32,000 nt of DNA from Mycobacterium tuberculosis H37Rv (GTDB taxonomy: Bacteria; Actinomycetota; Actinomycetes; Mycobacteriales; Mycobacteriaceae). Below, one piece after another: positions 9,685 through 32,000 of this stretch (positions within the stretch are counted from its first letter, which is position 1; every line of letters begins with the position of its first letter). The stretch is taken from the NCBI RefSeq assembly GCF_000195955.2, contig NC_000962.3, forward strand, positions 2,280,001 to 2,312,000, in the 5' to 3' direction. Under the pieces are notes generated by a model that worked only from the letters and a program-made list of their open reading frames with translations, did not search any database and had not been told where the DNA came from. A program made the position numbers and the translations under genes.

Positions 9685-11220
9685 TCAATTCGCCAGCGAA
9701 AACCCGTCCCATGCGATCCGGCGGTGCTGATGCGGATCGAACTCGATGCGGCACCTGCGGTCGAAAACCAGGACGGCACGGTCGTCTTGGGTGTAAGCCG
9801 GCCAGTCGTCGCCCGGAACACCAATTTGGCTGAAACAACGCCAGCGGCGTTGCACCTCGTTGCTGACCCGAAGGGCGGCACGGCGGTCGGCGGCGGCGGT
9901 CAGCAATGCGCCAAATCTGGTGCGATAGATGTCGAAGACGGCAAACAGTTCGGTGGCATGGGTGGCGCCGAAACCCGACCAGCGCAGCGTCCGTGGCGCG
10001 TAGTCATATCGGTATAGGTAGGTGGGCGCATTGGCGCCGTGAGCCTCGGCGATCTGCCAGGCCGCCGAGCTAAAGGCGAAGTCACCACCGAGCTGGATGC
10101 ACGCCGAGGGCGCAGGGTAATTCGGGTAGGCGGCGGTAATGCGTTCACGATCGGCCGGTTTCATGCCCGACAGTAGCTCTTCAACCATCGGTTCGTTGGT
10201 CGGCAGCATCCCCAGAAAGCGGGTGAACAACCGACCCTCTTCGGCGTTGGTTCCCACGATCAGCGGAACCGCGTGCACCCGGCCGGACCGCATCGCCTCG
10301 ACGGGGTCCATGGGCAGGTAGTCGTCGCCGAACACCGGACCAATCGGGAAGGCGCCCAGCCTTTTCCGCATTCCCTGGCGAATCAGGTGGTGTTGGGCTT
10401 CCACCAGCTGCGCGGGGGACGCCTGCATCAACGCATTGGCGGCATCCTGGGTACGCGCGCCGATCAGATTGGCAAAGCGTGCCGCGAACTCGGCGGCCAC
10501 CTCGCGCGAACGCACCATGCCCGCCGCTGGGCTTTCCGAGATCGCCCTGGCGAATAGGCCTTTGGCGGCTGGCACCGCCAACAGTGTGGCGGTGATATGC
10601 GCGCCCGCGCTTTCGCCGAAAATGGTGACATTGCCTGGGTCACCGCCGAACTCCGCGATGTTGTCGTGGACCCAACGCAACGCCAACACCAGGTCGCGCA
10701 GGTACACGTTGCTGTCGAGGGTGATCTGCGGTGTCGACAAGGACGACAGGTCAAGACACCCCAACGCGCCCAGCCGGTAGTTGACCGACACGTACACGCA
10801 GCCGCGGCGTGCCAACGCTGCGCCGTCGTATATCGGGGTTGCCGAGCTGCCCAGGATGTAGCCCCCACCGTGGATGAACACCATTACCGGCAGCGGCTGG
10901 GTGGCTGGCTCTTCGGGTGTGACGACGTTGAGGGTGAGACAGTCCTCGCTGCGGGTCTGGTACCTGCCGATGCCCATCACGGTGTAGCGGCGCTGCTGAG
11001 GAGCACAGTTGGCAAACGTGTGGCAGTGCCGTACGCCCGGCCAGGGCTGCGCTGGCTGCGGCGCCCGGAATCGCAGCGAGCCCACCGGCGCCCTGGCGTA
11101 AGGGATTGATCGCCAACGGTGCACACCGTCGCGCGTGAAGCCTTCAACGATGCCGGTGGCCGTGCGGGCGCGCACGGTGCGCTCGTGCATAGACCCGACG
11201 GTAGCCGACTCCAGGGCCAC
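9685..11220 (-). CDS. lipT: type-B carboxylesterase/lipase LipT, 511 aa
   Basis: The carboxylesterase type-B signature is present, with the nucleophile elbow FGESAGA, the oxyanion HGGG region (VFIHGGGYILG) and the N-terminal FRAPQP motif. The full ORF starts with GTG at 11220. Confidence 0.9.
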   Translation of the reverse strand: MALESATVGSMHERTVRARTATGIVEGFTRDGVHRWRSIPYARAPVGSLRFRAPQPAQPWPGVRHCHTFANCAPQQRRYTVMGIGRYQTRSEDCLTLNVVTPEEPATQPLPVMVFIHGGGYILGSSATPIYDGAALARRGCVYVSVNYRLGALGCLDLSSLSTPQITLDSNVYLRDLVLALRWVHDNIAEFGGDPGNVTIFGESAGAHITATLLAVPAAKGLFARAISESPAAGMVRSREVAAEFAARFANLIGARTQDAANALMQASPAQLVEAQHHLIRQGMRKRLGAFPIGPVFGDDYLPMDPVEAMRSGRVHAVPLIVGTNAEEGRLFTRFLGMLPTNEPMVEELLSGMKPADRERITAAYPNYPAPSACIQLGGDFAFSSAAWQIAEAHGANAPTYLYRYDYAPRTLRWSGFGATHATELFAVFDIYRTRFGALLTAAADRRAALRVSNEVQRRWRCFSQIGVPGDDWPAYTQDDRAVLVFDRRCRIEFDPHQHRRIAWDGFSLAN

Positions 11221-11268: not shown

Positions 11269-11925
11269 ATGCGGATCGCCGCGCTGGTCGCAGTGTCGTT
11301 GCTGATTGCGGGGTGCTCGCGCGAGGTCGGCGGTGATGTAGGGCAGTCGCAGACCATCGCCCCGCCGGCGCCCGCCCCGTCGGCGGCGCCGTCAACACCA
11401 CCGGCCGCAGGAGCGCCGATCACCACTATCGTGTCTTGGATTGAGGCGGGTCACCCGGTTGATCCCGCCGCCTATCACGTCGCCACCCGCGACGGCGTCA
11501 CCACCCAGCTTGGCGACGACGTCGCGTTCAGCGCTTCGTCGGGCACGGTGGCCTGTATGACGGATGCCAGGCACACTAGCGGCACCCTGGCCTGCCTGGT
11601 CCGACTCGCGAACCCACCACCCCGGCCCGAGACGGCCTACGGCGAATGGAAGGGCGGCTGGGTCGACTTTGACGGCATCCACCTGCAGGTCGGGTCCGCC
11701 CGCGCCGACCCGGGCCCGTTCGTCTACGGCAATGGACCCGAGCTGGCCAACGGGGACACGCTGTCGATCGGGGACTACCGCTGCCGCTCCTATCAAGCGG
11801 GCCTGTTCTGCGTGAACTACGCCCATCAGTCCGCGGTCCGGTTCGCCAGCGCCGGGATCGAGCCGTTCGGCTGCCTGAAGCCGGCGCCGCCACCCGACGG
11901 CGTGGGCGTTGCGTTCGGCTGCTGA
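11269..11925 (+). CDS. lppI: lipoprotein LppI, 218 aa
   Basis: The signal peptide and lipobox MRIAALVAVSLLIAGC are followed by a Pro/Ala-rich linker and a Cys-containing globular domain. Confidence 0.9.
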   Translation: MRIAALVAVSLLIAGCSREVGGDVGQSQTIAPPAPAPSAAPSTPPAAGAPITTIVSWIEAGHPVDPAAYHVATRDGVTTQLGDDVAFSASSGTVACMTDARHTSGTLACLVRLANPPPRPETAYGEWKGGWVDFDGIHLQVGSARADPGPFVYGNGPELANGDTLSIGDYRCRSYQAGLFCVNYAHQSAVRFASAGIEPFGCLKPAPPPDGVGVAFGC

Positions 11926-11961: not shown

Positions 11962-14526
11962 TCAGCGACTGAGATCGCTTCCCGGAAGCGCCGGCCCATC
12001 TTCGGACGCCAGCTCAACCACATGAATTTCCCCGGTAGCCCCGTCGACCTCCACCAATGCTCCTGGTGGCAGAAACCGGGTAGCTCCCTGGGCGTCGACC
12101 ACGCAAGGGAATCCGAACTCGCGGGCGACCACCGCGGCATGTGACATCGGGCCGCCGAGCTCGGTCACCACGGCGGCGGCGTAGCAGAAGGCCGCGGTGT
12201 ATCCGACGTCGGTGACCTCGGCGACCAGAATCTCGCCGGGCTGCAAATCGTCGATGGTCTCCGGACGCACGATCCGCACCCGGCCGCGCACCCGTCCGCC
12301 GCAGACGCCGACTCCGCGTAGAGTGTCCCCGGCTGCCAGCGCCGCCGCCGACGAAGGCGACGGTTCCCAGCTTCCGCTGAACACCGTGGGCGGAACGATG
12401 CCGGCAAGCCTGCGCTGTTCGGCACGGCGCCGAGCCACCAGCCCCGACACGTCTGCCGGCAGCGCATCGATTTCATCGACCAAGAGGTAGAACACATCGT
12501 CCGGGGTGTCGAAGACGCCGGCCTCGGTCAGCCGGCGCCCGTACTCCCGCAGCAGAGCACGCAGCACCCAGATGGCACGCACCATCCTGTCGCGGCGGAC
12601 CTCGCGGTCGCGGAGCTGGCGGGCCGCCAGCAACGCAACGGGCTTGGCCCGCAACGGAATCACCGGCGTCGGCGGTTGCGGCGCTGGCACCGCACGTAGC
12701 GTCTTGGCTACCATCCGCACCAGCAACTCGGGGTTGTCGGCATAGCTGGTGGCGGCCATCTCGACTTCCGCCGGACCGCGGTGCCCGATCAGCGTCAGCT
12801 CGGCCAGCACCGCGGAATGGAACTCCGGCGCCTCGACAGCTAGCTTGTCCAGACGCTCCCCCGGCTCGGCCAGCAACCGAATCACGACCGGATCCCGCCG
12901 TGCCGCGGCCACCAGCCGCTGCACCGCCTCCACCGATCGCGCGCTGACCAACTCCGGCCCGGCCGCCGGTGCGGTGTCCCGCCCGCACAATCCTCGCAAC
13001 AACACGTTGAACGCCGCACACAGCATGAACGACCCCGAGGCCAGCACCCAGCCGTGCACGACGTGGTCACGTGCCAACAAGATCAGGCTCAACAACCGGC
13101 GGTCGTCGTGGGTAGCGAGGTTATCGAAGGCGAGACGCTCCAGGCGATCGACGTCGGCGACATAGGCATCGGTGTCGCGGGGTGAGCCGGCGGACAGGCC
13201 CACCAGGTTGACGCCGAACACCCCGATATTGCGTAGCGTACGTAACCACCTGCGGGCACGGCTGGATTCCGATGGCGGTCGCTGCGCGCCAAAGATGGGC
13301 AGCGAAGCCATGCTGGGTCCGAAGAACCCGCTGTTGCTGACGATCGTCGCCGGCTTGGCGAAGGGGACGGTTGCTGCCATGAAATGCGCCGACGTGATGG
13401 CCCCGTACAGCCGGTGGGCGAACACCGCGACGGTCCGCATGGCGATTTCGCGCTGGATCACCCCGCTGGGCCGCAGCCGCTCGGCGATGCCCACCCCGCC
13501 GGCACGCAGGCCCCGCACAGTCACCGATGCCGACGACGGCGAGAACGGGCCGGGCAGCGCCTCCGAGAGGTTGGTGGCCAGATAGGTCGGGAAGCGCGGG
13601 TCGATCGGCGTGTCGAACTCGCCGTTGGCCCCTTCTGGGCCGGCCAATCTGGGTGCGACACCGTCGTCTGCCGGGGAGTCGACCGCCGGAAGGTCCTGGA
13701 TGTTAGCCAGCCGCCAAGGCAGGGAAAATGTTCGCTTTCCCAGACCGATCCGGCCACGCACCGCCAGGGTGAAGTCTTCGAGACACTCCTCGGCGTTCCA
13801 GGCCGGCTGGAATCCCCAGCGGTCACGCAGGAGCGTGACATCCATCAATGGCGCGCTGTGCAGGAGTTCGAGTTCGGCGAACGAGGTGACACGTCGTAGC
13901 ACTGGGGAGCCAATAGGCACCATGGGCCGCCCGAGCGCGGCCGCAATGCGCCGAAACGTCAACTCGCCAGGGGCGGCGAGATTAACAGGGCCGCTGTCGA
14001 TTACCGTGTCCAGTAGCGCGCGAACCAACAGCCGCTGCGCGTCGTCGGAGTGGACGACTTGTACGACGCGATCAGCATACCCGGCGGGTAACACCGGCAG
14101 AGCAAACAGCCGCTGCACCCAGTTGTCGACATTTCGACCGAAAATGAGCGCGCAGCGCACGGCGACCCATTCCAGGCCGCAGTCGGCCAGCATCTGCTCG
14201 ACGCGGGGTTGGTGACCGCTGGACGTGAAAACGATGCGCCCGGTTCCGGTCTCGGCCATCGCCTTGAGGACATTGGCGGTGCCGTCGATATTGATGTGGT
14301 CGTTTCGGCCACGCACCCACGCACAATGCGCGACCACATCCGCACCTGTCATAGCACTTTCGACGGCGGTGGCATCCCGGATATCGGCCGCAATGAAATC
14401 CGCTGAGCTCGGCCAGCTGTCCGGTCGATGACGTGCGATTCCGACGACCTCGTGACCCTGACTCAGCAATCTGGCGGTCAGGCCGCGGCCGAGAACTCCG
14501 CTGGCCCCGGTGACGGCGATTCTCAC
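11962..14526 (-). CDS. chimeric protein (Rv2047c-like), 854 aa: N-terminal NAD(P)-binding Rossmann (atypical extended SDR/epimerase-like) domain, a large middle domain, and a C-terminal PEP-utilising-enzyme mobile (phosphohistidine swivel) domain
   Basis: The GTG at 14526 lies 4 nt after the pks12 stop. Motifs are VRIAVTGASGVLGRG (GxxGxxG) and GGPMSHAAVVAREFGFPCVV (swivel-His signature, His codon 12139-12141). The longer 1039-aa ORF extension overlaps pks12 and is rejected. Confidence 0.9.
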   Translation of the reverse strand: MRIAVTGASGVLGRGLTARLLSQGHEVVGIARHRPDSWPSSADFIAADIRDATAVESAMTGADVVAHCAWVRGRNDHINIDGTANVLKAMAETGTGRIVFTSSGHQPRVEQMLADCGLEWVAVRCALIFGRNVDNWVQRLFALPVLPAGYADRVVQVVHSDDAQRLLVRALLDTVIDSGPVNLAAPGELTFRRIAAALGRPMVPIGSPVLRRVTSFAELELLHSAPLMDVTLLRDRWGFQPAWNAEECLEDFTLAVRGRIGLGKRTFSLPWRLANIQDLPAVDSPADDGVAPRLAGPEGANGEFDTPIDPRFPTYLATNLSEALPGPFSPSSASVTVRGLRAGGVGIAERLRPSGVIQREIAMRTVAVFAHRLYGAITSAHFMAATVPFAKPATIVSNSGFFGPSMASLPIFGAQRPPSESSRARRWLRTLRNIGVFGVNLVGLSAGSPRDTDAYVADVDRLERLAFDNLATHDDRRLLSLILLARDHVVHGWVLASGSFMLCAAFNVLLRGLCGRDTAPAAGPELVSARSVEAVQRLVAAARRDPVVIRLLAEPGERLDKLAVEAPEFHSAVLAELTLIGHRGPAEVEMAATSYADNPELLVRMVAKTLRAVPAPQPPTPVIPLRAKPVALLAARQLRDREVRRDRMVRAIWVLRALLREYGRRLTEAGVFDTPDDVFYLLVDEIDALPADVSGLVARRRAEQRRLAGIVPPTVFSGSWEPSPSSAAALAAGDTLRGVGVCGGRVRGRVRIVRPETIDDLQPGEILVAEVTDVGYTAAFCYAAAVVTELGGPMSHAAVVAREFGFPCVVDAQGATRFLPPGALVEVDGATGEIHVVELASEDGPALPGSDLSR

Positions 14527-14530
14527 GGTC

Positions 14531-17500
14531 CTACTCGTCGTCGTTCCGAAACGCCGCGTTGACCAGGTCGTCGAGGTCCATGTCCGCGATCTCTTGTTCT
14601 GCGGTCGGCGCCAACGCCGGGTCCTGGCCGCTGGTTTCGGTTTCATTTGCCAGCGCGAGCAACAGATCCAGCACTCCCGCCTGCCGTAAGCGCTTGACCG
14701 GAATGGACGCCACAATGCGTTGTAGTTCGGCTTCCCCGGCCGCCACGGCTGAAGTGTCTTGCGGTGATGAGCCGAGCAGTTCTCGACGCATATAGCCGGC
14801 CAGCGCCGCGGAGTTGGGGTAGTCGAAGATGAGCGTGGGTGAAAGCGCCAGGCCGGTGGCGGATTTGAGCCGGTTGCGCATTTCGACCGCGGTGAGCGAG
14901 TCGAAACCCAACTCCTGGAATGCCCTATCCGGGTCGATGGCTTCGGGGCTGGCGCTACCCAGCACGGTGGCGATGTGCGAGCGCACCAGGTCCAGCAGGA
15001 CGGCGTGTTGCTCGTCTTCGGGCAGTCCTTCCAGGCGTTGCAGCAGAGCCGATTTCGATTTCGCCGCGGCCAACGAGTCATCGACCTGGCGCCTGGTCGG
15101 CGCGTTGATCAGATCGACGAACATCGGCGGCAACGTGCCGCCATCGAACTTGACCTTCAACGCCGCAAAGTCGATGTGGGCGGGCAGCATGAATGGCTCG
15201 TCGACGATCATTGCGGTGTCGAACAATTGCAGGGCGTCAGCAGACGACATCGCCACGATGCCGTCGCGGGCGAAGCGTTTGAAGTCCACCGTCGCCAGGC
15301 CGCCGGTCATGGCGCTGGCCTGATCCCACAGACCCCAGCCCAGGGAGATGGCCGGCAGCCCATGGGCCCGCCGGTGGGCGGCCAGCGCATCCAAAAACGA
15401 ATTGGCGGCCGCATAGTTGGCCTGGCCCGACGATCCGACCAGCCCGGCCATCGACGAAAACATGACAAACGCCGACACATCCAGGTCGCGAGTCAACTCG
15501 TGCAGGTGCCACGCCGCGTCCACCTTGGACCGCAACACCACATCCACCCGATCCGGTGTCAGTGACATCACCACCGCGTCGTCGAGTGCGCCGGCGGTGT
15601 GGATCACGCCCGACAATGGATGCTGAACCGGAATATCGGCGATCACCTTGGCCAACGCCGCTCGATCCGCCGCGTCACAGGCCACCACCTGCACCTGCGC
15701 ACCGGCGGCGGCCAACTCGGCCACCAGCTCCGCAGCCCCGGGAGCATCCGGGCCGCGCCGGCTCACCAACACCAGATTGCGCACCCCATGACGAGCCACC
15801 ACGTGACGGGCCACCGCCGAACCCGCCATCCCGGTGCCACCGGTGATCAACACCGTGCCCGCCGCCCACGAGCCGGGCATCAGCATGACGACCTTGCCGG
15901 TGTGGCGCGCCTGGCTCAGATAACGCAACGCCGCAGGCGCGCACCGCACGTCAAAAGTGGTGACCGGCAACGGCCGCAGCACCCCATCGCCGAACAGCGT
16001 GGCGAGCTCGGCAAGGATCTGCGCAATGCGGTCCGGTCCCGGTTCGAATAGGTCGAAGGCGCGGTAGCGCACGCCCGGGTACTGCTGGGCGATCACGCCG
16101 GGGTCGCGGATGTCGGTCTTGCCCATCTCCAAGAACACCCCACCCGGTGCCACCAGACGCAGCGACGCATCCACGAATTCACCGGCCAGCGAGTCCAACA
16201 CCACGTCGAACCCTCGACCGCCAGTGGCCGCGCGGAACTTGTCCTCGAACTCTAGGCTACGTGAATCGGATATGTGGTCGTCGTCAAAGCCCATGGCGCG
16301 CAAGGTGTCCCACTTACCCTTGCTCGCGGTCGCGAACACCTCCAACCCCAGATGCCGAGCCAGCTGCACCGCCGCCATGCCCACCCCGCCGGTGCCGGCA
16401 TGGATCAACACGCGCTGGCCCGACCTAGCAGCGGCCAAATCCACCAGCGCGTAGTGGGCGGTGGCGAACACCACCGAGGTGGTGGCGGCGGCCGTGTGCG
16501 ACCACCCCGCCGGCACCTTGACCAGCAGCCGCTGGTCGGTGCTGGCGACGGTTCCGGTGCCCTCGGGGAACAGGCCCATTACCCGGTCTCCGACCGCGAA
16601 AGATCCCTTGTTCAAGCTGGTTTCGATAACGACGCCGCAGGCCTCAACGCCCATGACCGCGTCCGGATCGGGATACAGACCCAGCGCGATCATGACGTCG
16701 CGGAAGTTGGCGGCAATCGCGGACACCGCAACTCGAACCTGCCCGGGGCCCAGCGGCGCGTCGGCATCGGGAATCAGCTCCAGCCGCAGATTCTCGAAGG
16801 TGCCGGCGGTGCTCATCGCCAACCGCCACGGCCGGTCACTCGGAGGAACCAACAGCCCGCCCACCGCGCGGCTACCGTGCACCCGCGCCGTATAAACCTC
16901 CCCGCGCCGCCACAACACCTGCGGCTCGCCTGTCGTCACTACCGCCGCCAGGGCCGAATCGTCGAGCGGCGCATCGGAATCGACCAGCACGATCCGGCCC
17001 GGATGCTCGGTCTGCGCCGACCGCACCAATCCCCATACGGCGGCACCCGCCAAATCGGTGACATCTTCGCCCGGCAATGCCACCGCACCGCGGGTCATCA
17101 CCACCAAAACCCCTGCCCCATCACGGGTTAGCCACGACTGCAACACATCAAGCACCGAACTCGTGGCGGCATACACGCCCGCCACTACGTCACCGGCCAG
17201 AGGCACCGACTCAAACACCACCGCCGCCGAGTCCTCCGTTGTCCCCCAGGCGCACACCGGTAGCGGCTCCACCGCGGCCGATGGCTGCGGCGACCAGGTG
17301 ACCTCGAATAGCCGGTCCGGACCCGAGCTCGACACCGCCGCCCGCAATTGCTGATCGGTCACCGGTCGGGCCAGCATGGAAGCGACTGACAACACCGGCA
17401 ATCCCAACCCATCGGCCAGCTCGATCGACACCGCCGACGGACCCACTGGCGCGATGCGGGCCCGCACCGCCGACGCCCCCGCTGCATGCAACGAGACCCC

Positions 17501-20500
17501 CTGCCAGGAGAACGGGACCAACACCGAACCTTGGCCACGCTCGGCGCTTTCCGCGCTCAACACCACCGCGTGCAAGGCCGCATCCAGCAGCACCGGATGC
17601 ACCCCGAAGCCGGTGACCGAGACCCCGGCATCGGCGGGCAACGCCACCTCCGCGAACACCTCATCACCCCGGCGCCACATCGCGGTCAGTCCCCGAAACG
17701 CCGGCCCGTAGCCGTATCCGCGCTCGGCCAGCTGCTGATAGCCGTCCGCCACCTCAACCGGGACGGCGCCCGCCGGCGGCCACATCGCTAGATCCGCGGT
17801 CGGTTCCGCCGACCCGGCGCGCAGCGCGCCCTCGGCGTGCAACACCCAGCCGGTACCGACGTCACCACGCGAATACACCGACACCCCGCGCACGCCGGAC
17901 TCGTCGGGACCATTGACGACCACCTGAACCGCCACCGAACCGGATGCGGGCAACACCAACGGCGCGGCCAGCGTTAATTCGTCGACAACGCCACAACCCA
18001 CTTCGTCGCCGGCGCGGATCGCCAACTCCACAAATCCCGCTCCCGGGAAGATCGTCACGCCGGCAACGGAGTGGTCGGCCAACCAGCCCTGCACGCTGGG
18101 CGACAGCCGACCCGTCAACACCACCCCGCCCGAGGCCGGCAGATCGATCACCGCGCCCAAGAGCGCGTGCTCACTGGCCGCCAACCCCAAGCCGGCCGCG
18201 TCCGCCGCGACACCATCACCGGACAGCCAAAACCGCCGCCGTTGGAAGGCATACGTCGGCAACTCGACAAACTGCGCCTCGCCTACCACAGCGCGCCAAT
18301 CCAGGTCCATACCGGTGACAAACCCTTGCGCGACGGCGTTGGTCAACGTCGCCGGCTCGGGGCGATCCTTGCGCAGCGCAGACATCGTTGTCACCGCAAC
18401 GTCGGGCAACGACTCTTCGATCGACGCAACAAGGCCACCGCTGGGCCCGACTTCGAGGAATCGGCTGCCTCCGGCCGCCTGCGCGAAGCGCACACTGTCG
18501 GCGAACCGCACGGCTTGCCGGATGTGACGTCGCCAGTAGGCCGCTGATCCGAAATCGTCGCCCGCCAACTGCCCGGTCACGTTGGAGATGACTCCGATGG
18601 TGGGCCGGCCGATGGCGATTCCGGCAGCGACGGCTGCGAATTCGTCGATCATCGGATCCATCAACGGCGAGTGGAACGCGTGGGAAACCGCCAGCTGGTG
18701 GACTCGTCGTCCGTCGGCGCGCAGCTGGTCGGCCACCGCGGCCACGGCGTTTTGTGCACCCGAAATCACCAGTGACGCTGGACCGTTGACCGCAGCGATG
18801 TCAACCTCAGCGCTCAGCAGCGGCCGCACCTCTTCCTCGGCGGCTTGCACGGCGACCATCGCCCCACCGGCCGGCAACGCCTGCATGAGCCGGCCGCGGG
18901 CAGCCACCAACACCGCAGCGTTCTCCAACGACAGGACACCGGCGACATGTGCCGCAGACAACTCACCGATCGAGTGGCCCATGACAAAATCCGGTCGTAC
19001 ACCCCAGGATCCCAGCAACCGGAACAGGGCAACTTCCACCGCGAACAGCGCGGGCTGCGCGAATTCCGTGCTGTTCAGTAGGTTTTCGTCGTGACCCCAC
19101 ATCACTTCGCGCAGTGGGCGCAGCAGATGCCGGTCAAGTTCGCCCACTACGGTGTTGAACGCCTCGGCGAACACCGGGTATCCGGCGTGCAATCCCATTC
19201 CCATGCCCAGCCATTGGGAGCCTTGGCCGGGGAAGACGAACACCGTCTTACCCGCCGCAGTCGCCGTGCCCCGAACAACCGAGCCGCCCAACTGGTCACC
19301 CGCCAGCTCATCGAGCCCGGCCAACAACCGATCACGGTCCCCGCCAACCACCACCGCCCGATGCTCAAAAACCGAACGACCCGCCAACGACCACCCCACA
19401 TCGGCAACATCGAGGCCATCATCGCCACGCACGTACGCGGCCAACCGAGCCGCCTGCCCCCGCAACGCCGACTCCGACTTCGCCGACACCACCCACGGCA
19501 CCACCGGCCCCGCCCAACCAGCCTCCCGCCGCGGCACCACCGGCACCGCCTCGATAATCACATGCGCATTAGTGCCACTAATCCCAAACGACGACACCCC
19601 CGCACGACGCGTCCGAGCACCAGCAGGCCACACCCGCGGCGCGGTCAACAACTCCACCGCCCCCGCCGACCAATCCACATGCGGGCTAGGCACATCCACG
19701 TGCAACGTCGCCGGCAACAGCTCATGGCGCATCGCCAACACCATCTTGATCACCCCGGCCACCCCCGCCGCGGCCTGCGTATGACCCATATTCGACTTCA
19801 CCGACCCCAACCACAAAGGTTCTCCCGGCTCCCCCCGATCTTGCCCATAAGTGGCCAACAACGCCTGAGCCTCAATCGGATCCCCCAACGTGGTCCCGGT
19901 CCCATGCCCCTCCACCACATCCACCTCGGCCGCGCTCAACCCGGCATTGGCCAACGCCGCCCGCACCACCCGCTGCTGCGAAGGACCATTAGGCGCGGTC
20001 AACCCATTCGACGCCCCATCCTGATTAACCGCCGACCCGACCACCACCGCCAACACCGGATGACCCAACCGCCGCGCATCCGAAAGCCGCTGCAGCACCA
20101 ACATCCCACCGCCCTCGGAGAATCCGGTGCCGTCGGCCGCCGCGGCGAATGCCTTGCAGCGCCCGTCCGGGGATAATCCGCGCCAGCGGCTGAATTCCAC
20201 GAAGATGTCGGGTGTGGCGTTGACGGTGACGCCGCCAGCCAGCGCCAGATCGCACTCCCCCGACCGCAGCGATCCCACCGCCATATGCAACGCCACCAAC
20301 GACGACGAACACGCCGTATCCACCGACACCGCCGGACCCTCCAACCCCAGCACATAGGCCACCCGACCCGAGGCGACGCTGGACAATTGGCCGGTCAGCC
20401 GGAAGCCTTCTACCGGCTCGGCGGCGAACATGCCGTAGCCTTGCGTCATTACCCCGGCGAATACCCCGGTGGCGCTGCCGCGCAATCCGGTCGGATCGAT

Positions 20501-23500
20501 ACCGGCCCGCTCCAACGCCTCCCAGGACAACTCCAGCAACATCCGATGCTGTGGATCCATCGCGAGGGCCTCGCTCGGCCCCACCCCGAAGAAGGCGGGG
20601 TCGAAGTCGCCGACCCCGTCCACAAAGCCGCCGGTGCGGGTGTAGCACGCACCCGCGGCGTCGGGGTCGGGGTTGTATAGCCCGGCCAGGTCCCACCCGC
20701 GGTCCGCCGGGAATTCGGAGAGCACGTCGCGGCCCTGGATCAGCATGTCCCACATGTCGTCCGGGGAATTCACCCCGCCGGGATAGCGGCACGCCATGCC
20801 CACGATCGCGATCGGATCCTCGCTCGTGGTGCGTACCGCGGGTGTGTGCTTGATTTCCTGTGGGAGGCCGGCAAGTTCGGTGCGGATATAGGAGGCCAGC
20901 CGATTGGGTGTCGGGTAGTCGAAGATGAGCGTGGGTGAAAGTGAAAGGCCGGTGGCGGATTTGAGCCGGTTACGCATTTCGACCGCGGTCAACGAGTCAA
21001 AACCCAGGTCCTGGAACGCCTTGTCGGGGTCGATGGCTTCTGGCGTGATGTTGCCCAGCACGGTGGCGATGTGCAAACGCACCAGGCCTAGCAAGACGGC
21101 GTGCTGTTCGGCTTCGGGCAGCCCGTGCAGGCGATGCGCGAGCGCCGATTTCGACTTTGCGGCGGCCACGGAGTCGTCGACCTGACGGCGGGTCGGCGCG
21201 CTGGCTAGGTCGGAGAACATGGGCGGCACCGCCACCGCATGGGCTCGCAGTGCGGTGAGGTCAATGCGGGCGGGCGCCAGGAATGGCTCGTCGACGATCA
21301 TTGCGGTGTCGAACAGTTCCAGCGCCTCAGCGGTGGACAGCGCCAGCACCCCTTCACGACCCAGCCGGGCCAGGTCTGCGGCGTCCAGGCCGCCGGTCAT
21401 GGCGCTGGCCTGATCCCACAGACCCCAGCCCAGGGAGATGGCCGGCAGCCCATGGGCCCGCCGGTGGGCGGCCAGCGCATCCAAAAACGAATTGGCGGCC
21501 GCATAGTTGGCCTGGCCCGACGATCCGACCAGCCCGGCCATCGACGAAAACATGACAAACGCCGACACATCCAGGTCGCGAGTCAACTCGTGCAGGTGCC
21601 ACGCCGCGTCCACCTTGGACCGCAACACCACATCCACCCGATCCGGTGTCAGTGACATCACCACCGCGTCGTCGAGTGCGCCGGCGGTGTGGATCACGCC
21701 CGACAATGGATGCTGAACCGGAATATCGGCGATCACCTTGGCCAACGCCGCTCGATCCGCCGCGTCACAGGCCACCACCTGTACCTGCGCACCGGCGGCG
21801 GCCAACTCGGCCACCAGCTCCGCAGCCCCGGGAGCATCCGGGCCGCGCCGGCTCACCAACACCAGATTGCGCACCCCATGACGAGCCACCACGTGACGGG
21901 CCACCGCCGAACCCGCCATCCCGGTGCCACCGGTGATCAACACCGTGCCCGCCGCCCACGAGCCGGGCATCAGCATGACGACCTTGCCGGTGTGGCGCGC
22001 CTGGCTCAGATAACGCAACGCCGCAGGCGCGCGCCGCACGTCAAAAGTGGTGACCGGCAACGGCCGCAGCACCCCATCGCCGAACAGCGTGGCGAGCTCC
22101 AGCATGTACTGATGCATCCGGGGACGTCCCGGTTCGAATAGGTCGAAGGCGCGGTAGCGCACGCCCGGGTACTGCTGGGCGATCACGCCGGGGTCGCGGA
22201 TGTCGGTCTTGCCCATCTCCAAGAACACCCCACCCGGTGCCACCAGACGCAGCGACGCATCCACGAATTCACCGGCCAGCGAGTCCAACACCACGTCGAA
22301 CCCTCGACCGCCAGTGGCCGCGCGGAACTTGTCCTCGAACTCTAGGCTACGTGAATCGGATATGTGGTCGTCGTCAAAGCCCATGGCGCGCAAGGTGTCC
22401 CACTTACCCTTGCTCGCGGTCGCGAACACCTCCAACCCCAGATGCCGAGCCAGCTGCACCGCCGCCATGCCCACCCCGCCGGTGCCGGCATGGATCAACA
22501 CGCGCTGGCCCGGTTGTACGTCGGCCAAATGTATGAATGCGTAGTACGCGGTGGTGAAGACAGCCGAGATGGCGGCGGCTTCGGCGTAGGACCAGTCGGC
22601 GGGCATCGGCAGCAGCAGCCGGACGTCGCCGGCCACCAGGGTGCCGCTGCCGTCGGGGAAGAATCCGAACACCGAATCACCGACCGAGAATTCGGTGACA
22701 CCGGGGCCGACCTCGACGACCACGCCCGCGCCTTCGCCGCCGAGCAGCGCGTCGTGGGTGAACATGCCTAGGGTGATCATGATGTCGCGGAAGTTCGCGG
22801 CGATGGCGCGCATGGCCACCCGGACCTGGCCGGGCCCCAACGGTGCGTCGGCGTTGGGAACCGGCTCGAGCCGCAGATTTTCGAAGGTGCCCGCGCTGCC
22901 CAGACCCAACCGCCATGGCCCATCGCCCGGCGGCACCAAGATGGCATCCGCCGCGCGGCTGCCGCGCACGCGCGCGGTGTACACCTGTCCGCCCCGCAGC
23001 ACTACCTGCGGCTCGCCAGTCGCCAACGCCATCGCGATCGCCGCGTCGTCGGTGGCCGCATCGGAATCGACCAGCACGATCCGGCCCGGATGCTCGGTCT
23101 GCGCCGACCGCACCAGCCCCCACACGGCCGCGCCCGCCAGATCGGCGACGTCTTCGCGGGGCAGCGCCATCGCGCCCCGGGTCGCCACCACCAGCACCCC
23201 GGATTCATGGTCGGTCAGCCACGACTGCACTGCGGCCAGAGCCTGGTGGCTGCGCACGTAGCTGCCGGCTACCGGATCTTGGTCAGCCGCAACCGATTCA
23301 AAGATCTGGTAGGCGGGGGTAGGCCCCGGGGACGTGGCCGCCGACGCGGGCGACCAGATCACTTCGAACAGCCGGTCGGGACCCGAGCCCGACACCGCCG
23401 CCAGCAGCTGCCGCTCGGTCACCGGGCGGGCCACCATCGAGGCCACCGACAATACCGGCAGACCCAGCCCGTCCGCCAACTCCACCGACACCGCCGACGG

Positions 23501-26500
23501 CCCCGCCGGCGCGATCCGGGCCCGCACCGCCGAGGCCCCCGTGGCATGCAACGACACGCCCTGCCAAGCGAACGGCAATGCGAGTTCGTCCGGGTCGCCG
23601 GCGATCACGACCGCATGCAAGACGGCGTCCAACAAAGCCGGATGCACACCGAACCCACCGACTCCCCCGGCCGCCTCCGGCAGCCTCACCTCGGCGAATA
23701 TTTCCTCGCCGCGGGCCCACATCGCGGTCAGCCCGCGAAACGCCGGTCCGTACCGGTAGCCGCGTGTCGCCAACCGCTCATAGCCATCGGCCACGTCCAC
23801 CGTCACGGCACCTGCCGGTGGCCACACCGATAGGTCCGCGCCTGGTTCAACCGACCCGGGCCGCAGGATACCCTCGGCATGCAAAAGCCAGCCCGCTTGC
23901 GCGTCAGCTCGGGAAAATATCGACACACCACGGGAATTCGAATCCCGGCCAGCGTCGACTACCACCTGCACCGCAACGGAGCCGGTGGCGGGCAACAGCA
24001 GGGGTGCGGCCAGCGTCAGCTCGTCAAGCACCGAGCAGCCGACTTCGTCGCCGGCGCGGATCGCCAGCTCCACGAATCCGGTGCCCGGGAACAGCACCAC
24101 GTCTGAAACGGCGTGGTCGGCCAACCACGGCTGCACGTTGGGCGACAACCGACCCGTCAACACCACCCCGCCGGAGGCGGGCAGGTCGACCACCGCGCCC
24201 AGCAACGGGTGTTCGCTCGCACCCAACCCCAAACCGGATACGTCGGCGCCTGAGCCCTCGGCCGAGAGCCAAAACCGGCGCTTGTCAAAGGCATACGTCG
24301 GCAGCTCCACATAGCCCGCTCCGTCCAGCGTGCCCCGCCAGTTCACAGCCACCCCCGCCACAAACGCGGACGCCGCCGAGAGCAGGAATCGGTGCAGCCC
24401 ACCATCTCCACGCCCCAGCGTGGGGACGACAATGGCCTCGCTGTCACCGTCGGTGCACGCGGCGAATGTTTCCTCGACACCGGTAATCAACGCCGGATGC
24501 GGGCTGGATTCGATGAACGTGCGGTAGCCCTGCTCGCAGGCGTTGCGCACCGCCTGGTCGAATAGCACGGTCTGGCGGACGTTGCGGTACCAGTAGTCGG
24601 CGTCCAAACCAGCTGTATCCAAACGATTTCCGGTCACCGTAGAGAAGAAGACGGTACGCGTGGATCGCGGTTCGATGCCGGACAGAGCTTCGGCGAGTGG
24701 GCCACGGATCGCCTCGACCTCCACCGAATGCGAGGCATAGTCCACCTCGATCCGGCGGGTCCGCAGTTCCTTGGTGGAGCACACCGCGATCAGCTCCTCC
24801 AGCGCGCCCACTTCGCCCGACACCACCACCGCCGAGGGGCCGTTGACGACGGCGATGCTGACCCGATCGCCGAAGGGCGCCAACAAATCCCGCGCCTGGT
24901 CGGCACCGCACGCGATGGACACCATGCCGCCCGGGCCGGCCAGTCCGGCCAGCAACTTGCTGCGCAGCGTGACCACCCGTGCGGCGTCGCGCAGCGACAG
25001 CGCGCCGGCAACGTAGGCGGCAGCGATCTCGCCTTGCGAATGACCGATCACCGCATCCGGATGCACTGCGACCGACTTCCACAGCTCGGCCAGTGACACC
25101 ATCACCGCGAACAGCACGGGCTGCACCACATCCACGCGATCCAGTCCCGGTGCACCGGGGGCGCCACGCAGCACGTCCACCAGCGACCAGTCGACAAATT
25201 CCGCGAACGCCTCGGCACACGCGTCGATCTGCTGCGCGAATGCCGGTGCGGTATCGAGCAGTTCGATTCCCATGCCCAGCCATTGGGAGCCTTGGCCGGG
25301 GAAGACGAACACCGTCTTACCCGCCGCAGTCGCCGTGCCCCGAACAACCGAGCCGCCCAACTGGTCACCCGCCAGCTCATCGAGCCCGGCCAACAACCGA
25401 TCACGGTCCCCGCCAACCACCACCGCCCGATGCTCAAAAACCGAACGACCCGCCAACGACCACCCCACATCGGCAACATCGAGGCCATCATCGCCACGCA
25501 CGTACGCGGCCAACCGAGCCGCCTGCCCCCGCAACGCCGACTCCGACTTCGCCGACACCACCCACGGCACCACCGGCCCCGCCCAACCAGCCTCCCGCCG
25601 CGGCACCACCGGCACCGCCTCGATAATCACATGCGCATTAGTGCCACTAATCCCAAACGACGACACCCCCGCACGACGCGTCCGAGCACCAGCAGGCCAC
25701 ACCCGCGGCGCGGTCAACAACTCCACCGCCCCCGCCGACCAATCCACATGCGGGCTAGGCACATCCACGTGCAACGTCGCCGGCAACAGCTCATGGCGCA
25801 TCGCCAACACCATCTTGATCACCCCGGCCACCCCCGCCGCGGCCTGCGTATGACCCATATTCGACTTCACCGACCCCAACCACAAAGGTTCTCCCGGCTC
25901 CCCCCGATCTTGCCCATAAGTGGCCAACAACGCCTGAGCCTCAATCGGATCCCCCAACGTGGTCCCGGTCCCATGCCCCTCCACCACATCCACCTCGGCC
26001 GCGCTCAACCCGGCATTGGCCAACGCCGCCCGCACCACCCGCTGCTGCGAAGGACCATTAGGCGCGGTCAACCCATTCGACGCCCCATCCTGATTAACCG
26101 CCGACCCGACCACCACCGCCAACACCGGATGACCCAACCGCCGCGCATCCGAAAGCCGCTGCAGCACCAACATCCCACCGCCCTCGGACCAGCCGACCCC
26201 ATCAGCCCGCCCGGCGTAAGGCTTGCACCGGCCGTCGGGTGCCAGCCCACGATGCCTGCTGAATTCCACGAAGACCGTCGGTGTGGCGTTGACGGTGACG
26301 CCGCCAGCCAGCGCCAGATCGCACTCCCCCGACCGCAGCGATCCCACCGCCATATGCAACGCCACCAACGACGACGAACACGCCGTATCCACCGACACCG
26401 CCGGACCCTCCAACCCCAGCACATAGGCCACCCGACCCGAGGCGACGCTGGAGGTCATCCCGGTCAGCCGGTAGCCCTCGATCTCCTCGGCCAACATTCC

Positions 26501-26986
26501 GTAGCCGCCGACGATGAGCCCGGCGAATACCCCGGTGGCGCTGCCGCGCAATCCGGTCGGATCGATACCGGCCCGCTCCAACGCCTCCCAGGACAACTCC
26601 AGCAACATCCGATGCTGTGGATCCATCGCTAACGCCTCGCTGGGCGAAATACCGAAGAACGCGGGATCGAAATCCGCGACGCCATCCACGAAGCCCCCAG
26701 TGCGCGCGTACGACTTATGGCGCACGTCGGGATCCGGGTCGAACAACCCGGCCAGATCCCACCCACGGTCGGTGGGAAATTCTGACATCACGTCCCTGGC
26801 GTCGGCCACCATCTGCCACAGCCCTTCCGGGGAATCGACGCCCCCCGGGAAGCGACACGACATGCCCACGATCGCGATCGGCTCGCTCGAGCGCTCCAGC
26901 AACGCACGGTTGGTGCGCTTCAGGCGTTCCACCTGGACCAGCGCTTTGCGCAGCGCTTCGGTCGCATGCTGGAGTTGATCAACCAT
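14531..26986 (-). CDS. pks12: bimodular type I polyketide synthase Pks12 (mycoketide synthase), 4151 aa: [KS-AT-DH-ER-KR-ACP] x2 with N- and C-terminal docking segments and no TE/R domain
   Basis: ATG at 26986 is preceded by GAGG; TAG at 14531-14533.
Module 1:
- KS about 25618-26884, Cys203 codon 26378-26380
- AT about 24480-25312, GHSQG Ser650 codon 25037-25039, YASH at 24728-24739
- DH HPLLG His926 codon 24209-24211
- ER about 21965-22850
- KR about 21400-21950
- ACP Ser1998 codon 20993-20995
Module 2:
- KS about 19549-20821, Cys2226 codon 20309-20311
- AT about 18400-19243, GHSIG Ser2672 codon 18971-18973, HAFH at 18671-18682
- DH HALLG His2940 codon 18167-18169
- ER about 15875-16755
- KR about 15310-15860
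- ACP Ser4030 codon 14897-14899. Confidence 0.97.
15295..16422. repeat. intragenic direct repeat copy A (ER C-terminal half plus KR of pks12 module 2), 1128 bp, partner at 21385..22512 (offset 6090 bp)
   Basis: A base-by-base reading shows identity except two SNPs (15692 c vs 21782 t, synonymous; 15943 a vs 22033 g, Cys/Arg) and one 27-nt substituted patch (16010-16036 vs 22100-22126). Confidence 0.9.
19197..20119. repeat. intragenic direct repeat copy A (KS C-terminal part, KS-AT linker and start of AT of pks12 module 2), 923 bp, apparently 100% identical to 25266..26188 (offset 6069 bp)
   Basis: Line-by-line comparison shows no differences. Identity resumes after short divergent patches at 20191-20383 / 26260-26452 and, after a 3-bp indel, from 20453 / 26519. 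Confidence 0.9.
21385..22512. repeat. intragenic direct repeat copy B (ER C-terminal half plus KR of pks12 module 1), partner of 15295..16422
   Basis: Same as copy A. The identical antisense ORF translations in the six-frame track (15417..15626 = 21507..21716; 16110.. = 22200..) confirm it. Confidence 0.9.
25266..26188. repeat. intragenic direct repeat copy B (KS-AT junction of pks12 module 1), partner of 19197..20119
   Basis: Same as copy A. The antisense ORFs 19152..19784 and 25272..25853 give identical translations. Confidence 0.9.

Positions 26987-27820: not shown

Positions 27821-32000
<4,180 letters not shown>

Follow-up and report, generated by a model that had tools for sequence, protein, structure and literature searches.

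Which protein phosphorylates the product of the polyketide synthase (PKS) Pks12 is the question raised by a 32,000-nucleotide stretch of the Mycobacterium tuberculosis H37Rv genome (NC_000962.3, positions 2,280,001 to 2,312,000). The whole stretch, hereafter the window, corresponds to the pncA-lipT-lppI-Rv2047c-pks12-ppm1 region, and coordinates of M. tuberculosis features are counted from its first nucleotide. Mannosyl-phosphomycoketide (MPM) is a classic M. tuberculosis antigen presented by CD1c. Mycoketide release, reduction and phosphorylation lack assigned enzymes (Chopra 2008), and in a September 2026 preprint on pks12 the step is still ascribed to 'an unknown phosphotransferase'. The same preprint places pks12 among the most strongly preserved genes across more than 50,000 clinical isolates, and reports that an abundant mycolylated lipid of the surface is made from MPM.

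Chopra et al. (2008) put forward Rv2047c, the gene immediately downstream of pks12, for the release and phosphorylation of mycoketide, and Zhang et al. (2020) repeated the proposal. A first-pass annotation of the window, made from the sequence alone, had also selected this gene, on the assumption that the steps had no assigned enzymes. The assumption holds for the phosphotransferase, but the candidate had already been named, and the annotation thus arrived anew at a published hypothesis. Searches of the literature on Rv2047c, and on mycoketide in combination with phosphotransferase, returned proposals only and no solved function. The analysis reported here suggests, with a probability of about one half, that Rv2047c is the acceptor-side part of a split dikinase of the rifampin phosphotransferase (RPH) type, fused to a decayed short-chain dehydrogenase/reductase (SDR) domain, co-translated with Pks12, and phosphorylating the Pks12-derived alcohol. 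Judged from its sequence, Rv2047c is the best candidate for the phosphomycoketide phosphotransferase, as already proposed. Proof of such an activity would complete the pathway, provide a target of drug or vaccine relevance, and show for the first time that an RPH-type dikinase can act biosynthetically on a lipid alcohol.

Domain organization of Rv2047c

The Rv2047c coding sequence (11962 to 14526, minus strand, as all its features below) encodes 854 amino acids, and its translation ends in a stop codon. The protein matches NCBIfam NF004520 end to end (1894 bits), and its start is conserved in 21 orthologs. The motifs VTGASGVLGRG, DIRD, FTSSGHQPRVEQML, TNLSEALPGPFSP and GGPMSHAAVVAREFGFPCVV are all found in the translation. 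Rv2047c combines an SDR fold with a substrate-binding domain like that of RPH and a swivel histidine, and lacks RPH's ATP-grasp domain.

The N-terminal, extended-SDR-like domain (amino acids 1-270; 13717 to 14526) is catalytically degenerate. It is recognized by the Pfam families Epimerase, NAD_binding_10 and NmrA, as well as by Foldseek; the Epimerase match (amino acids 3-105, E 8.5e-16) covers just positions 1-117 of the 240 of the profile. The glycine-rich dinucleotide-binding loop, T6-G-A-S-G-V-L-G13 (14488 to 14511), is present in the translation. The middle domain (amino acids ~296-730; 12337 to 13641) is homologous to the rifampin-binding domain (RIF-BD) of RPH. The homology is indicated by Foldseek, by the comparison of the Rv2047c family profile with RPH (E 4e-49), and by Pfam PF27448 'Rph_4th', which precomputed annotation assigns to all family members. 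The C-terminal domain (amino acids 731-838; 12013 to 12336) is a phosphohistidine swivel, or PEP-utilizers mobile, domain. It is matched by PF00391 (amino acids 762-832, E 7e-22) and by Protein Data Bank (PDB) entries for RPH, phosphoenolpyruvate synthase (PEPS) and pyruvate phosphate dikinase (PPDK). In a phmmer search against the PDB, amino acids 641-837 were aligned to residues 666-866 of the Listeria rifampin phosphotransferase (RPH-Lm).

An AlphaFold2 model of Rv2047c, built on 22 family members (pLDDT 86.5, pTM 0.89), found as best Foldseek matches six RPH-Lm structures (E 1e-21 to 3.5e-16, 599-665 aligned columns). Among these, 5FBS, 5FBT, 5FBU and 5HV1 are matched at E 1e-21 to 4e-19 over 600-665 columns. 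Next in rank are matches of the N-terminal domain to GalE-type extended SDRs, SimC7 and SwaQ2. Rv2047c and RPH-Lm share the RIF-BD-like fold, the C-terminal swivel histidine, the R-E-x-x-K/R cluster and the T-x-x-G-G-x-M-x-H motif. They differ in that Rv2047c lacks the ATP-grasp domain and has a degenerate extended SDR at the N-terminus, identity is ~17-19%, and a lipid alcohol takes the place of a rifamycin as predicted acceptor. Rv2047c is also distinct from RPH proper, as it scores 107 bits on NF041857, which has a cut-off of 999.

Pfam and NCBIfam scans of Rv2047c gave no match to PF01326 (PPDK_N) or to the PEP-binding barrel (PF02896). The first-pass annotation had described a chimera with a Rossmann fold of the extended-SDR type in place of the ATP-grasp domain, a middle region reminiscent of the substrate-binding domain of rifampicin phosphotransferases, and a swivel domain carrying His796, and all these features are borne out. 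Its notion of a self-sufficient, nucleotide-binding, His-phosphotransfer protein is not supported, as neither the protein nor the window encodes an ATP-grasp domain or a PEP-binding barrel. Since Rv2047c has no ATP-grasp domain, the phosphodonor must act in trans.

Acceptor-side catalytic residues

In RPH-Lm the second phosphotransfer, from His825 to rifampin, requires Arg666 and Glu667, and Lys670 belongs to the same hydrogen-bond network; rifampin inactivation is abolished by the substitutions R666A and E667A (Stogios 2016). These residues are aligned in the profile alignment, with high posterior probability, to R641, E642 and R645 of the Rv2047c stretch R641-E642-V-R-R645-D646 (12589 to 12606). 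The predicted phosphocarrier, identified by motif, PDB match and alignment, is His796 of the motif T788-E-L-G-G-P-M-S-H796. Its codon (12139 to 12141) is obtained by arithmetic, and the alignment gives the same residue number. The residue two positions before the histidine is a methionine, as in RPH and HpeH, and not the regulatory threonine of PPDK and PEPS. Among 45 genomic homologs, R641, E642, R645, D646, T788, G791, G792, H796 and R802 are invariant wherever the swivel domain exists. As the set formed by R641, E642, R645 and H796 is conserved, the acceptor-side phosphotransfer apparatus looks intact at the level of sequence. The strict conservation of this catalytic set is described here for the first time.

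We infer that the acceptor is the mycoketide alcohol. His796 on the swivel domain would be phosphorylated by an ATP-grasp module given in trans; the swivel domain would then dock on the RIF-BD-like domain, where the R641/E642/R645 cluster would orient the phosphohistidine. The hydroxyl of the C30-34 alcohol derived from Pks12 would receive the phosphate, and the resulting phosphomycoketide would be mannosylated by Ppm1 to MPM.

The C-terminal region of Rv2047c, swivel histidine included, is homologous also to that of the prodiginine ligases PigC, RedH and HapC, the last 200 amino acids matching RedH at E 1e-38 and PigC at E 7.5e-26. The protein might thus activate a carboxylate or carbonyl group, for example as an acyl phosphate, and drive release, transfer or reduction by another enzyme. 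In ancestral homologs the phosphotransfer module is joined to an intact SDR, and the neighbours are aldehyde dehydrogenase, AMP-binding and haloacid dehalogenase (HAD) phosphatase genes, which fits chemistry at the acid/aldehyde oxidation level. The ligases, however, carry an N-terminal PPDK_N domain and catalyze ATP-driven condensations, and Rv2047c scores ~10-fold under the model cut-offs (133 versus 1350 bits). Moreover, the pathway ends in a stable alkyl phosphate, for which O-phosphorylation is required regardless. For these reasons we regard activation of a carboxylate or carbonyl group as unlikely.

Linkage to pks12

The junction between the two genes reads ...GAG TAG GACC GTG AGA..., and the GTG start codon at 14526 lies exactly 4 nucleotides past the pks12 stop codon, as the first-pass annotation had noted in support of co-transcription. 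The spacer GACC (14527 to 14530) implies translational coupling of pks12 and Rv2047c. A scan of the junction for promoters and terminators gave no signal above chance.

To follow the conservation of this arrangement, one genome was scanned for each GTDB species, which returned 80 loci (numbered L below). Orthologs with at least 48% identity, found in Mycobacterium and Mycolicibacterium species and in metagenome-assembled genomes (MAGs), are located immediately 3' of a pks12 ortholog in 21/21 loci, and 2 to 31 nucleotides separate the pks12 stop from the conserved start. The lone exception (L018) is an unlinked, SDR-intact paralog, and the same genome hosts a pks12-linked copy (L008). Homologs with 40% identity or less, from Gordonia, Nocardia and MAGs, are not linked to PKS genes. 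In the reverse direction, all four further pks12 C-termini inspected (M. shimoidei, Mycobacterium sp. and two long-read contigs) are followed by an Rv2047c ortholog. The co-occurrence of the two genes across mycobacteria, suggested as a check by the earlier annotation, is hence found in both directions, and operon coupling is kept in all these loci. This two-way conservation of the junction in all the orthologs examined has not been described before.

In two long-read metagenome contigs (L089 and L090) pks12 and the Rv2047c ortholog are each split into several called genes; the splits probably reflect frameshift sequencing errors and not pseudogenes. A conserved partner downstream of Rv2047c was also looked for and rejected, as lipT is linked in only about one third of the ortholog loci and the remaining downstream genes vary.

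The strict linkage bears on the possibility that the substrate of Rv2047c is unrelated to mycoketide, and is mycobactin or some other toxic small molecule detoxified by phosphorylation, the transposon insertion sequencing (TnSeq) phenotype of pks12 being due to polarity. Mycobactin has a phenol, and the RPH family includes both drug-inactivating and phenol-phosphorylating kinases. Zhang et al. (2020) built a delta-rv2047c mutant (ML2256) and complemented it (ML2257); mycobactin at 1 uM kills the mutant, a stronger effect than that on pks12 insertions (ES versus GD). The same authors, however, prefer an indirect envelope effect, and loss of pks12 changes the envelope globally. Detoxification is also hard to reconcile with a pks12 junction strictly kept across wide divergence, even where other neighbours differ, and we rate it as quite unlikely.

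Decay of the SDR domain

Catalytic sites were compared in an alignment of 22 proteins and 45 genomic homologs. A deletion of ~31 residues at the SDR active site of Rv2047c (TSSG|HQPRVEQ) has removed the tyrosine of the YxxxK motif and left Gln106 at the position of the lysine. The remnant of the active site is S102-S103-G-H-Q106-P-R108 (14203 to 14223). The YxxxK motif is thus absent after the TSSG strand, as the first-pass annotation had noted. Distant homologs (33-57% identity, ~870-890 amino acids) retain the extended-SDR active site SS..AYG....E.....P....Y..HK. The tyrosine is missing from every pks12-linked ortholog, and the lysine position is occupied by Q, R, K, L, V, T or A. Large deletions in the SDR region are found in M. 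tuberculosis and in four other loci (L008, L019, L021, L023). The TGxxGxxG loop, TGASGVLG in M. tuberculosis, is kept in most orthologs and broken in three of these (L008, L021, L023). Residues 101-270 are the least conserved of the pks12-linked set; their mean pairwise identity is 52%, whereas the middle domain reaches 66% and the swivel domain 81%. Among unlinked homologs with an intact SDR it is this domain that is relatively better conserved, and S/YxxxK is strictly kept.

As judged from these alignments, the SDR domain is a pseudo-enzyme throughout the pks12-linked clade, a feature described here for the first time. The residual cofactor motifs suggest a nucleotide-binding or structural module at most, and the domain probably survives as a structural, NADP(H)-binding/regulatory or docking module.

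Chopra et al. (2008) proposed, and the first-pass annotation in part implied, a bifunctional release enzyme, in which the SDR would reductively release the Pks12 acyl chain to aldehyde or alcohol and the swivel part would phosphorylate it. Pks12 lacks a release domain, and the N-terminal domain shares with GalE-type, NmrA-like and SimC7 proteins the Rossmann fold and the TGxxGxxG, DxxD and HxAA-like cofactor motifs, the glycine loop being intact in most orthologs. Reductase activity is known for some atypical SDRs that lack the canonical triad, and SimC7 is among the structural neighbours. Unlike extended SDRs and the reductase (R) domains of PKS and nonribosomal peptide synthetases, however, the pks12-linked clade has no Ser-Tyr-Lys triad, and the match to the thioester-reductase R domain PF07993 is marginal (E 0.035, residues 5-29) and not significant. 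Reductive release by Rv2047c is unlikely because the tyrosine, often the lysine, and at times even the glycine loop are lost in the pks12-linked orthologs, in the least conserved part of the protein. The reductive role was hence rejected, and the bifunctional enzyme as a whole seems to us very improbable. Of the release, reduction and phosphorylation for which the earlier annotation made Rv2047c a candidate, phosphorylation is partly supported, the acceptor residues being invariant, and the reductase role is not supported. If the SDR is not the pathway reductase, release and reduction must fall to other proteins, and the search for the reductase is redirected to these.

Candidate phosphate donor

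In the two-component dikinases HpeHI, CreHI and PpsAB (phenylphosphate synthase), the subunit that unites a RIF-BD-like with a swivel domain depends on a separate ATP-grasp protein, HpeI in the case of HpeH; HpeH alone is able to move phosphate between substrates (Dexter 2025). Rv2047c resembles HpeH, CreH and PpsA in the RIF-BD-like domain, the swivel histidine and the lack of an ATP-grasp domain, the likeness to HpeH being drawn from its description. It differs in the extra N-terminal SDR-like domain, in the biosynthetic (PKS) and not catabolic context, in the lack of an adjacent partner gene, and in that the candidate partner has a swivel domain of its own. By analogy, Rv2047c would correspond to HpeH with an added N-terminal pseudo-SDR. 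We know of no precedent for a Rossmann/SDR domain phosphorylating a swivel histidine. The hypothesis that a donor domain is hidden in Rv2047c or nearby was also considered and rejected, since the protein has no PPDK_N or PEP-binding match and a tblastn search of the window gave no VadK-like ATP-grasp domain.

We infer that the trans donor is most likely VadK (Rv1127c, annotated as ppdK). VadK is a truncated PPDK formed by an ATP-grasp and a swivel domain, without a small-molecule acceptor domain, and its His422 is autophosphorylated with ATP/Mg. Rv2047c and VadK belong to the same swivel-domain superfamily, and differ in having complementary contents, the donor side being found in VadK and the acceptor side in Rv2047c. 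The conditional TnSeq profile of ppdK, in the tables of Zhang et al. (2020) for six iron conditions, is shared by Rv2047c and pks12. Mean insertion counts in the six conditions are 2, 9.8, 4.5, 62.1, 59.3 and 3.1 for ppdK, 0.2, 25.6, 0.5, 86.9, 81.3 and 0.9 for Rv2047c, and 3, 17.3, 12.3, 50.2, 50.2 and 6.4 for pks12.

Family members cluster in other actinobacteria. VadK-family genes, scoring 862-872 bits on NF004531 (cut-off 456), are located within 10 kb of SDR-intact Rv2047c-family genes in four loci (L018, L025, L028, L046). In three more (L057, L062, L072) they adjoin the gene for an HpeH-like protein of 655 amino acids with a RIF-BD-like C-terminal part and a swivel domain. If each genome held one such VadK-family gene, chance alone would by our own estimate yield ~0.3 VadK-linked loci among the 80, at 20 kb per locus. 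In L028 a cluster encoding a HAD protein, two acyl-CoA dehydrogenases, an enoyl-CoA hydratase, an SDR, an AMP-ligase and a VadK-like protein is divergent from genes for an Rv2047c-like protein and an aldehyde dehydrogenase. Gene clustering supports a partnership of VadK and Rv2047c at the family level, not one demonstrated in M. tuberculosis.

It is conceivable, and we put it forward as tentative, that Rv2047c and VadK are the two halves of one split dikinase making phosphomycoketide. The ATP-grasp domain of VadK would charge either its own His422, with a subsequent relay, or directly His796 of Rv2047c, and Rv2047c would deliver the phosphate to the alcohol. VadK as a concrete candidate for the ATP-grasp partner is a novel, unproven extension of the published idea. 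The partnership, if true, would join two independently found virulence determinants, and would tie VadK to the Pks12/MPM/MPMMM envelope pathway and to a small-molecule output. Pairs of SDR-RIF-BD-swivel and VadK-type proteins would similarly represent a previously unrecognised actinobacterial two-protein kinase system.

Several observations weigh against a split dikinase formed by Rv2047c, with VadK or another donor, and acting on mycoketide. No VadK-like ATP-grasp protein is encoded in the 32-kb window, as assessed by tblastn, and the pks12-linked ortholog has no PPDK_N gene within 10 kb at any of the 21 loci; as there is no ATP-grasp gene in the window or beside the pks12-linked orthologs, the donor is a matter of conjecture. 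To our knowledge, the acceptors of the family are rifamycins and phenols, and not long-chain primary alcohols. VadK bears a swivel domain of its own, unlike HpeI. Its published co-immunoprecipitation (co-IP) partners are PrpC, PrpD, Mfd, Rv1179c and PpsE, without Rv2047c. The VadK paper reports cell-wall lipids as unchanged, although trace MPM would probably have escaped notice. The TnSeq phenotype of pks12 could result from polarity on rv2047c, and the shared profile of pks12 is therefore weaker evidence for a common pathway. Neither a lipid phenotype of a delta-rv2047c strain nor a biochemical assay of Rv2047c was found in the literature. Lastly, a gene for an APH/EcKL-like kinase follows lipT in many non-tuberculous clusters, and may provide an alternative kinase there.

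The latter gene prompts the alternative that another kinase, the APH/EcKL-like protein in non-tuberculous clusters and a paralog located elsewhere in M. tuberculosis, phosphorylates the alcohol, Rv2047c being an accessory, regulatory or scaffold protein of Pks12, for example an NADPH-sensing pseudo-enzyme. The kinase gene encodes ~670 amino acids with APH/EcKL and DUF7064/DUF7065 domains, and is found after lipT in L002 (17998-20037), L008, L010-L014, L087 (from 5697) and L088 (from 6722). An accessory role would also suit a protein that lacks a donor domain and has a pseudo-enzyme for SDR. However, the APH-like gene was undetected in the window and is absent from most of the linked loci, where Rv2047c is always there, and the invariant histidine and R/E dyad argue for genuine phosphotransfer chemistry. 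We therefore deem a purely accessory Rv2047c unlikely, and retain acceptor-side phosphotransfer as the preferred function.

Rv2047c is found nowhere in the text, co-IP table or 13 supplements of the VadK paper, so a published direct VadK-Rv2047c interaction was discarded as a lead. A further mention of Rv2047c, in a figure legend of Serafini 2019 (PMC6851703), denotes Sdh1 as 'Rv2047c-Rv2049c', apparently a typo for Rv0247c-Rv0249c, and is a trap for text mining. In a co-essentiality preprint pks12 is mentioned solely in a cholesterol module.

Rv1126c, a small gene beside ppdK/vadK, shares with ppdK, Rv2047c and pks12 the mycobactin-conditional TnSeq profile in the supplementary tables of Zhang et al. 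(2020). The profile could reflect polarity or a further member of the pathway.

SDR-intact and swivel-less relatives

Homologs with an intact SDR and no linkage to PKS genes form a subfamily found in L018 (10001-12676), L025 (9986-12673), L028 (10001-12607), L029, L030, L052 and L081-L086. Neighbouring genes encode a HAD phosphatase, often translationally coupled, a patatin, aldehyde dehydrogenase, AMP-ligase, acyl-CoA dehydrogenases and P450/ferredoxin proteins. The context suggests a catabolic or lipid-modifying kinase-reductase.

The 655-amino acid proteins of L057 (8750-13781 for the pair), L062 and L072 lack the SDR and form an operon-like pair with the VadK-family protein, two small unmatched ORFs being located between the two genes. 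The pair may be another split dikinase with a VadK-type partner. Paralogs of ~700 amino acids (NF008972/PRK12320-like), identified in L041-L055 (e.g. L047, 10001-12094), consist of an SDR-like and a RIF-BD-like domain with the R-E dyad, and have no swivel domain. Their genes show conserved synteny with those for a double CoA-transferase III, a thiolase-like TLP1 protein, a ferredoxin reductase and a Lon protease. A VadK-like protein could in principle supply these paralogs with a swivel domain in trans.

Gene map of the window

Pfam identifies in the window a pncA-type isochorismatase, a lipT-type type-B carboxylesterase, a two-module fully reducing PKS and a ppm1-type fusion of Lnt and GT2. 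The gene pks12 (14531 to 26986, minus strand), the upstream operon partner of Rv2047c, encodes 4151 amino acids organized in two KS-AT-DH-ER-KR-ACP modules. No thioesterase (TE) or R domain was found in Pks12 by Pfam, in keeping with the earlier annotation. The carboxylesterase of the lipT type (9685 to 11220, minus strand, 511 amino acids), co-directional with and downstream of Rv2047c, is a candidate release enzyme according to Chopra et al. (2008). The next step of the pathway is represented by ppm1 (28131 to 30755, minus strand), a polyprenol-phosphate mannose synthase fused to Lnt, whose maximal ORF extends to 31271. The start giving 874 amino acids is the one that we take to be that of Rv2051c.

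The Rv2047c frame is open for 555 nucleotides further upstream (14527 to 15081, minus strand), into the 3' end of pks12, and the ORF list reports a 1039-amino acid product from an ATG at 15081. This extension is most likely a high-GC artefact, because the conserved start is the GTG at 14526. The start, M/V-R/K-I-A, directly precedes the beta-1 strand of the Rossmann fold and is kept in the 21 orthologous loci.

An ORF of the lppI type (11269 to 11925, plus strand), without Pfam match, is convergent with Rv2047c and separated from it by a gap of 36 nucleotides. Only some species have it inserted between lipT and the Rv2047c ortholog; in others lipT comes directly, on the same strand.

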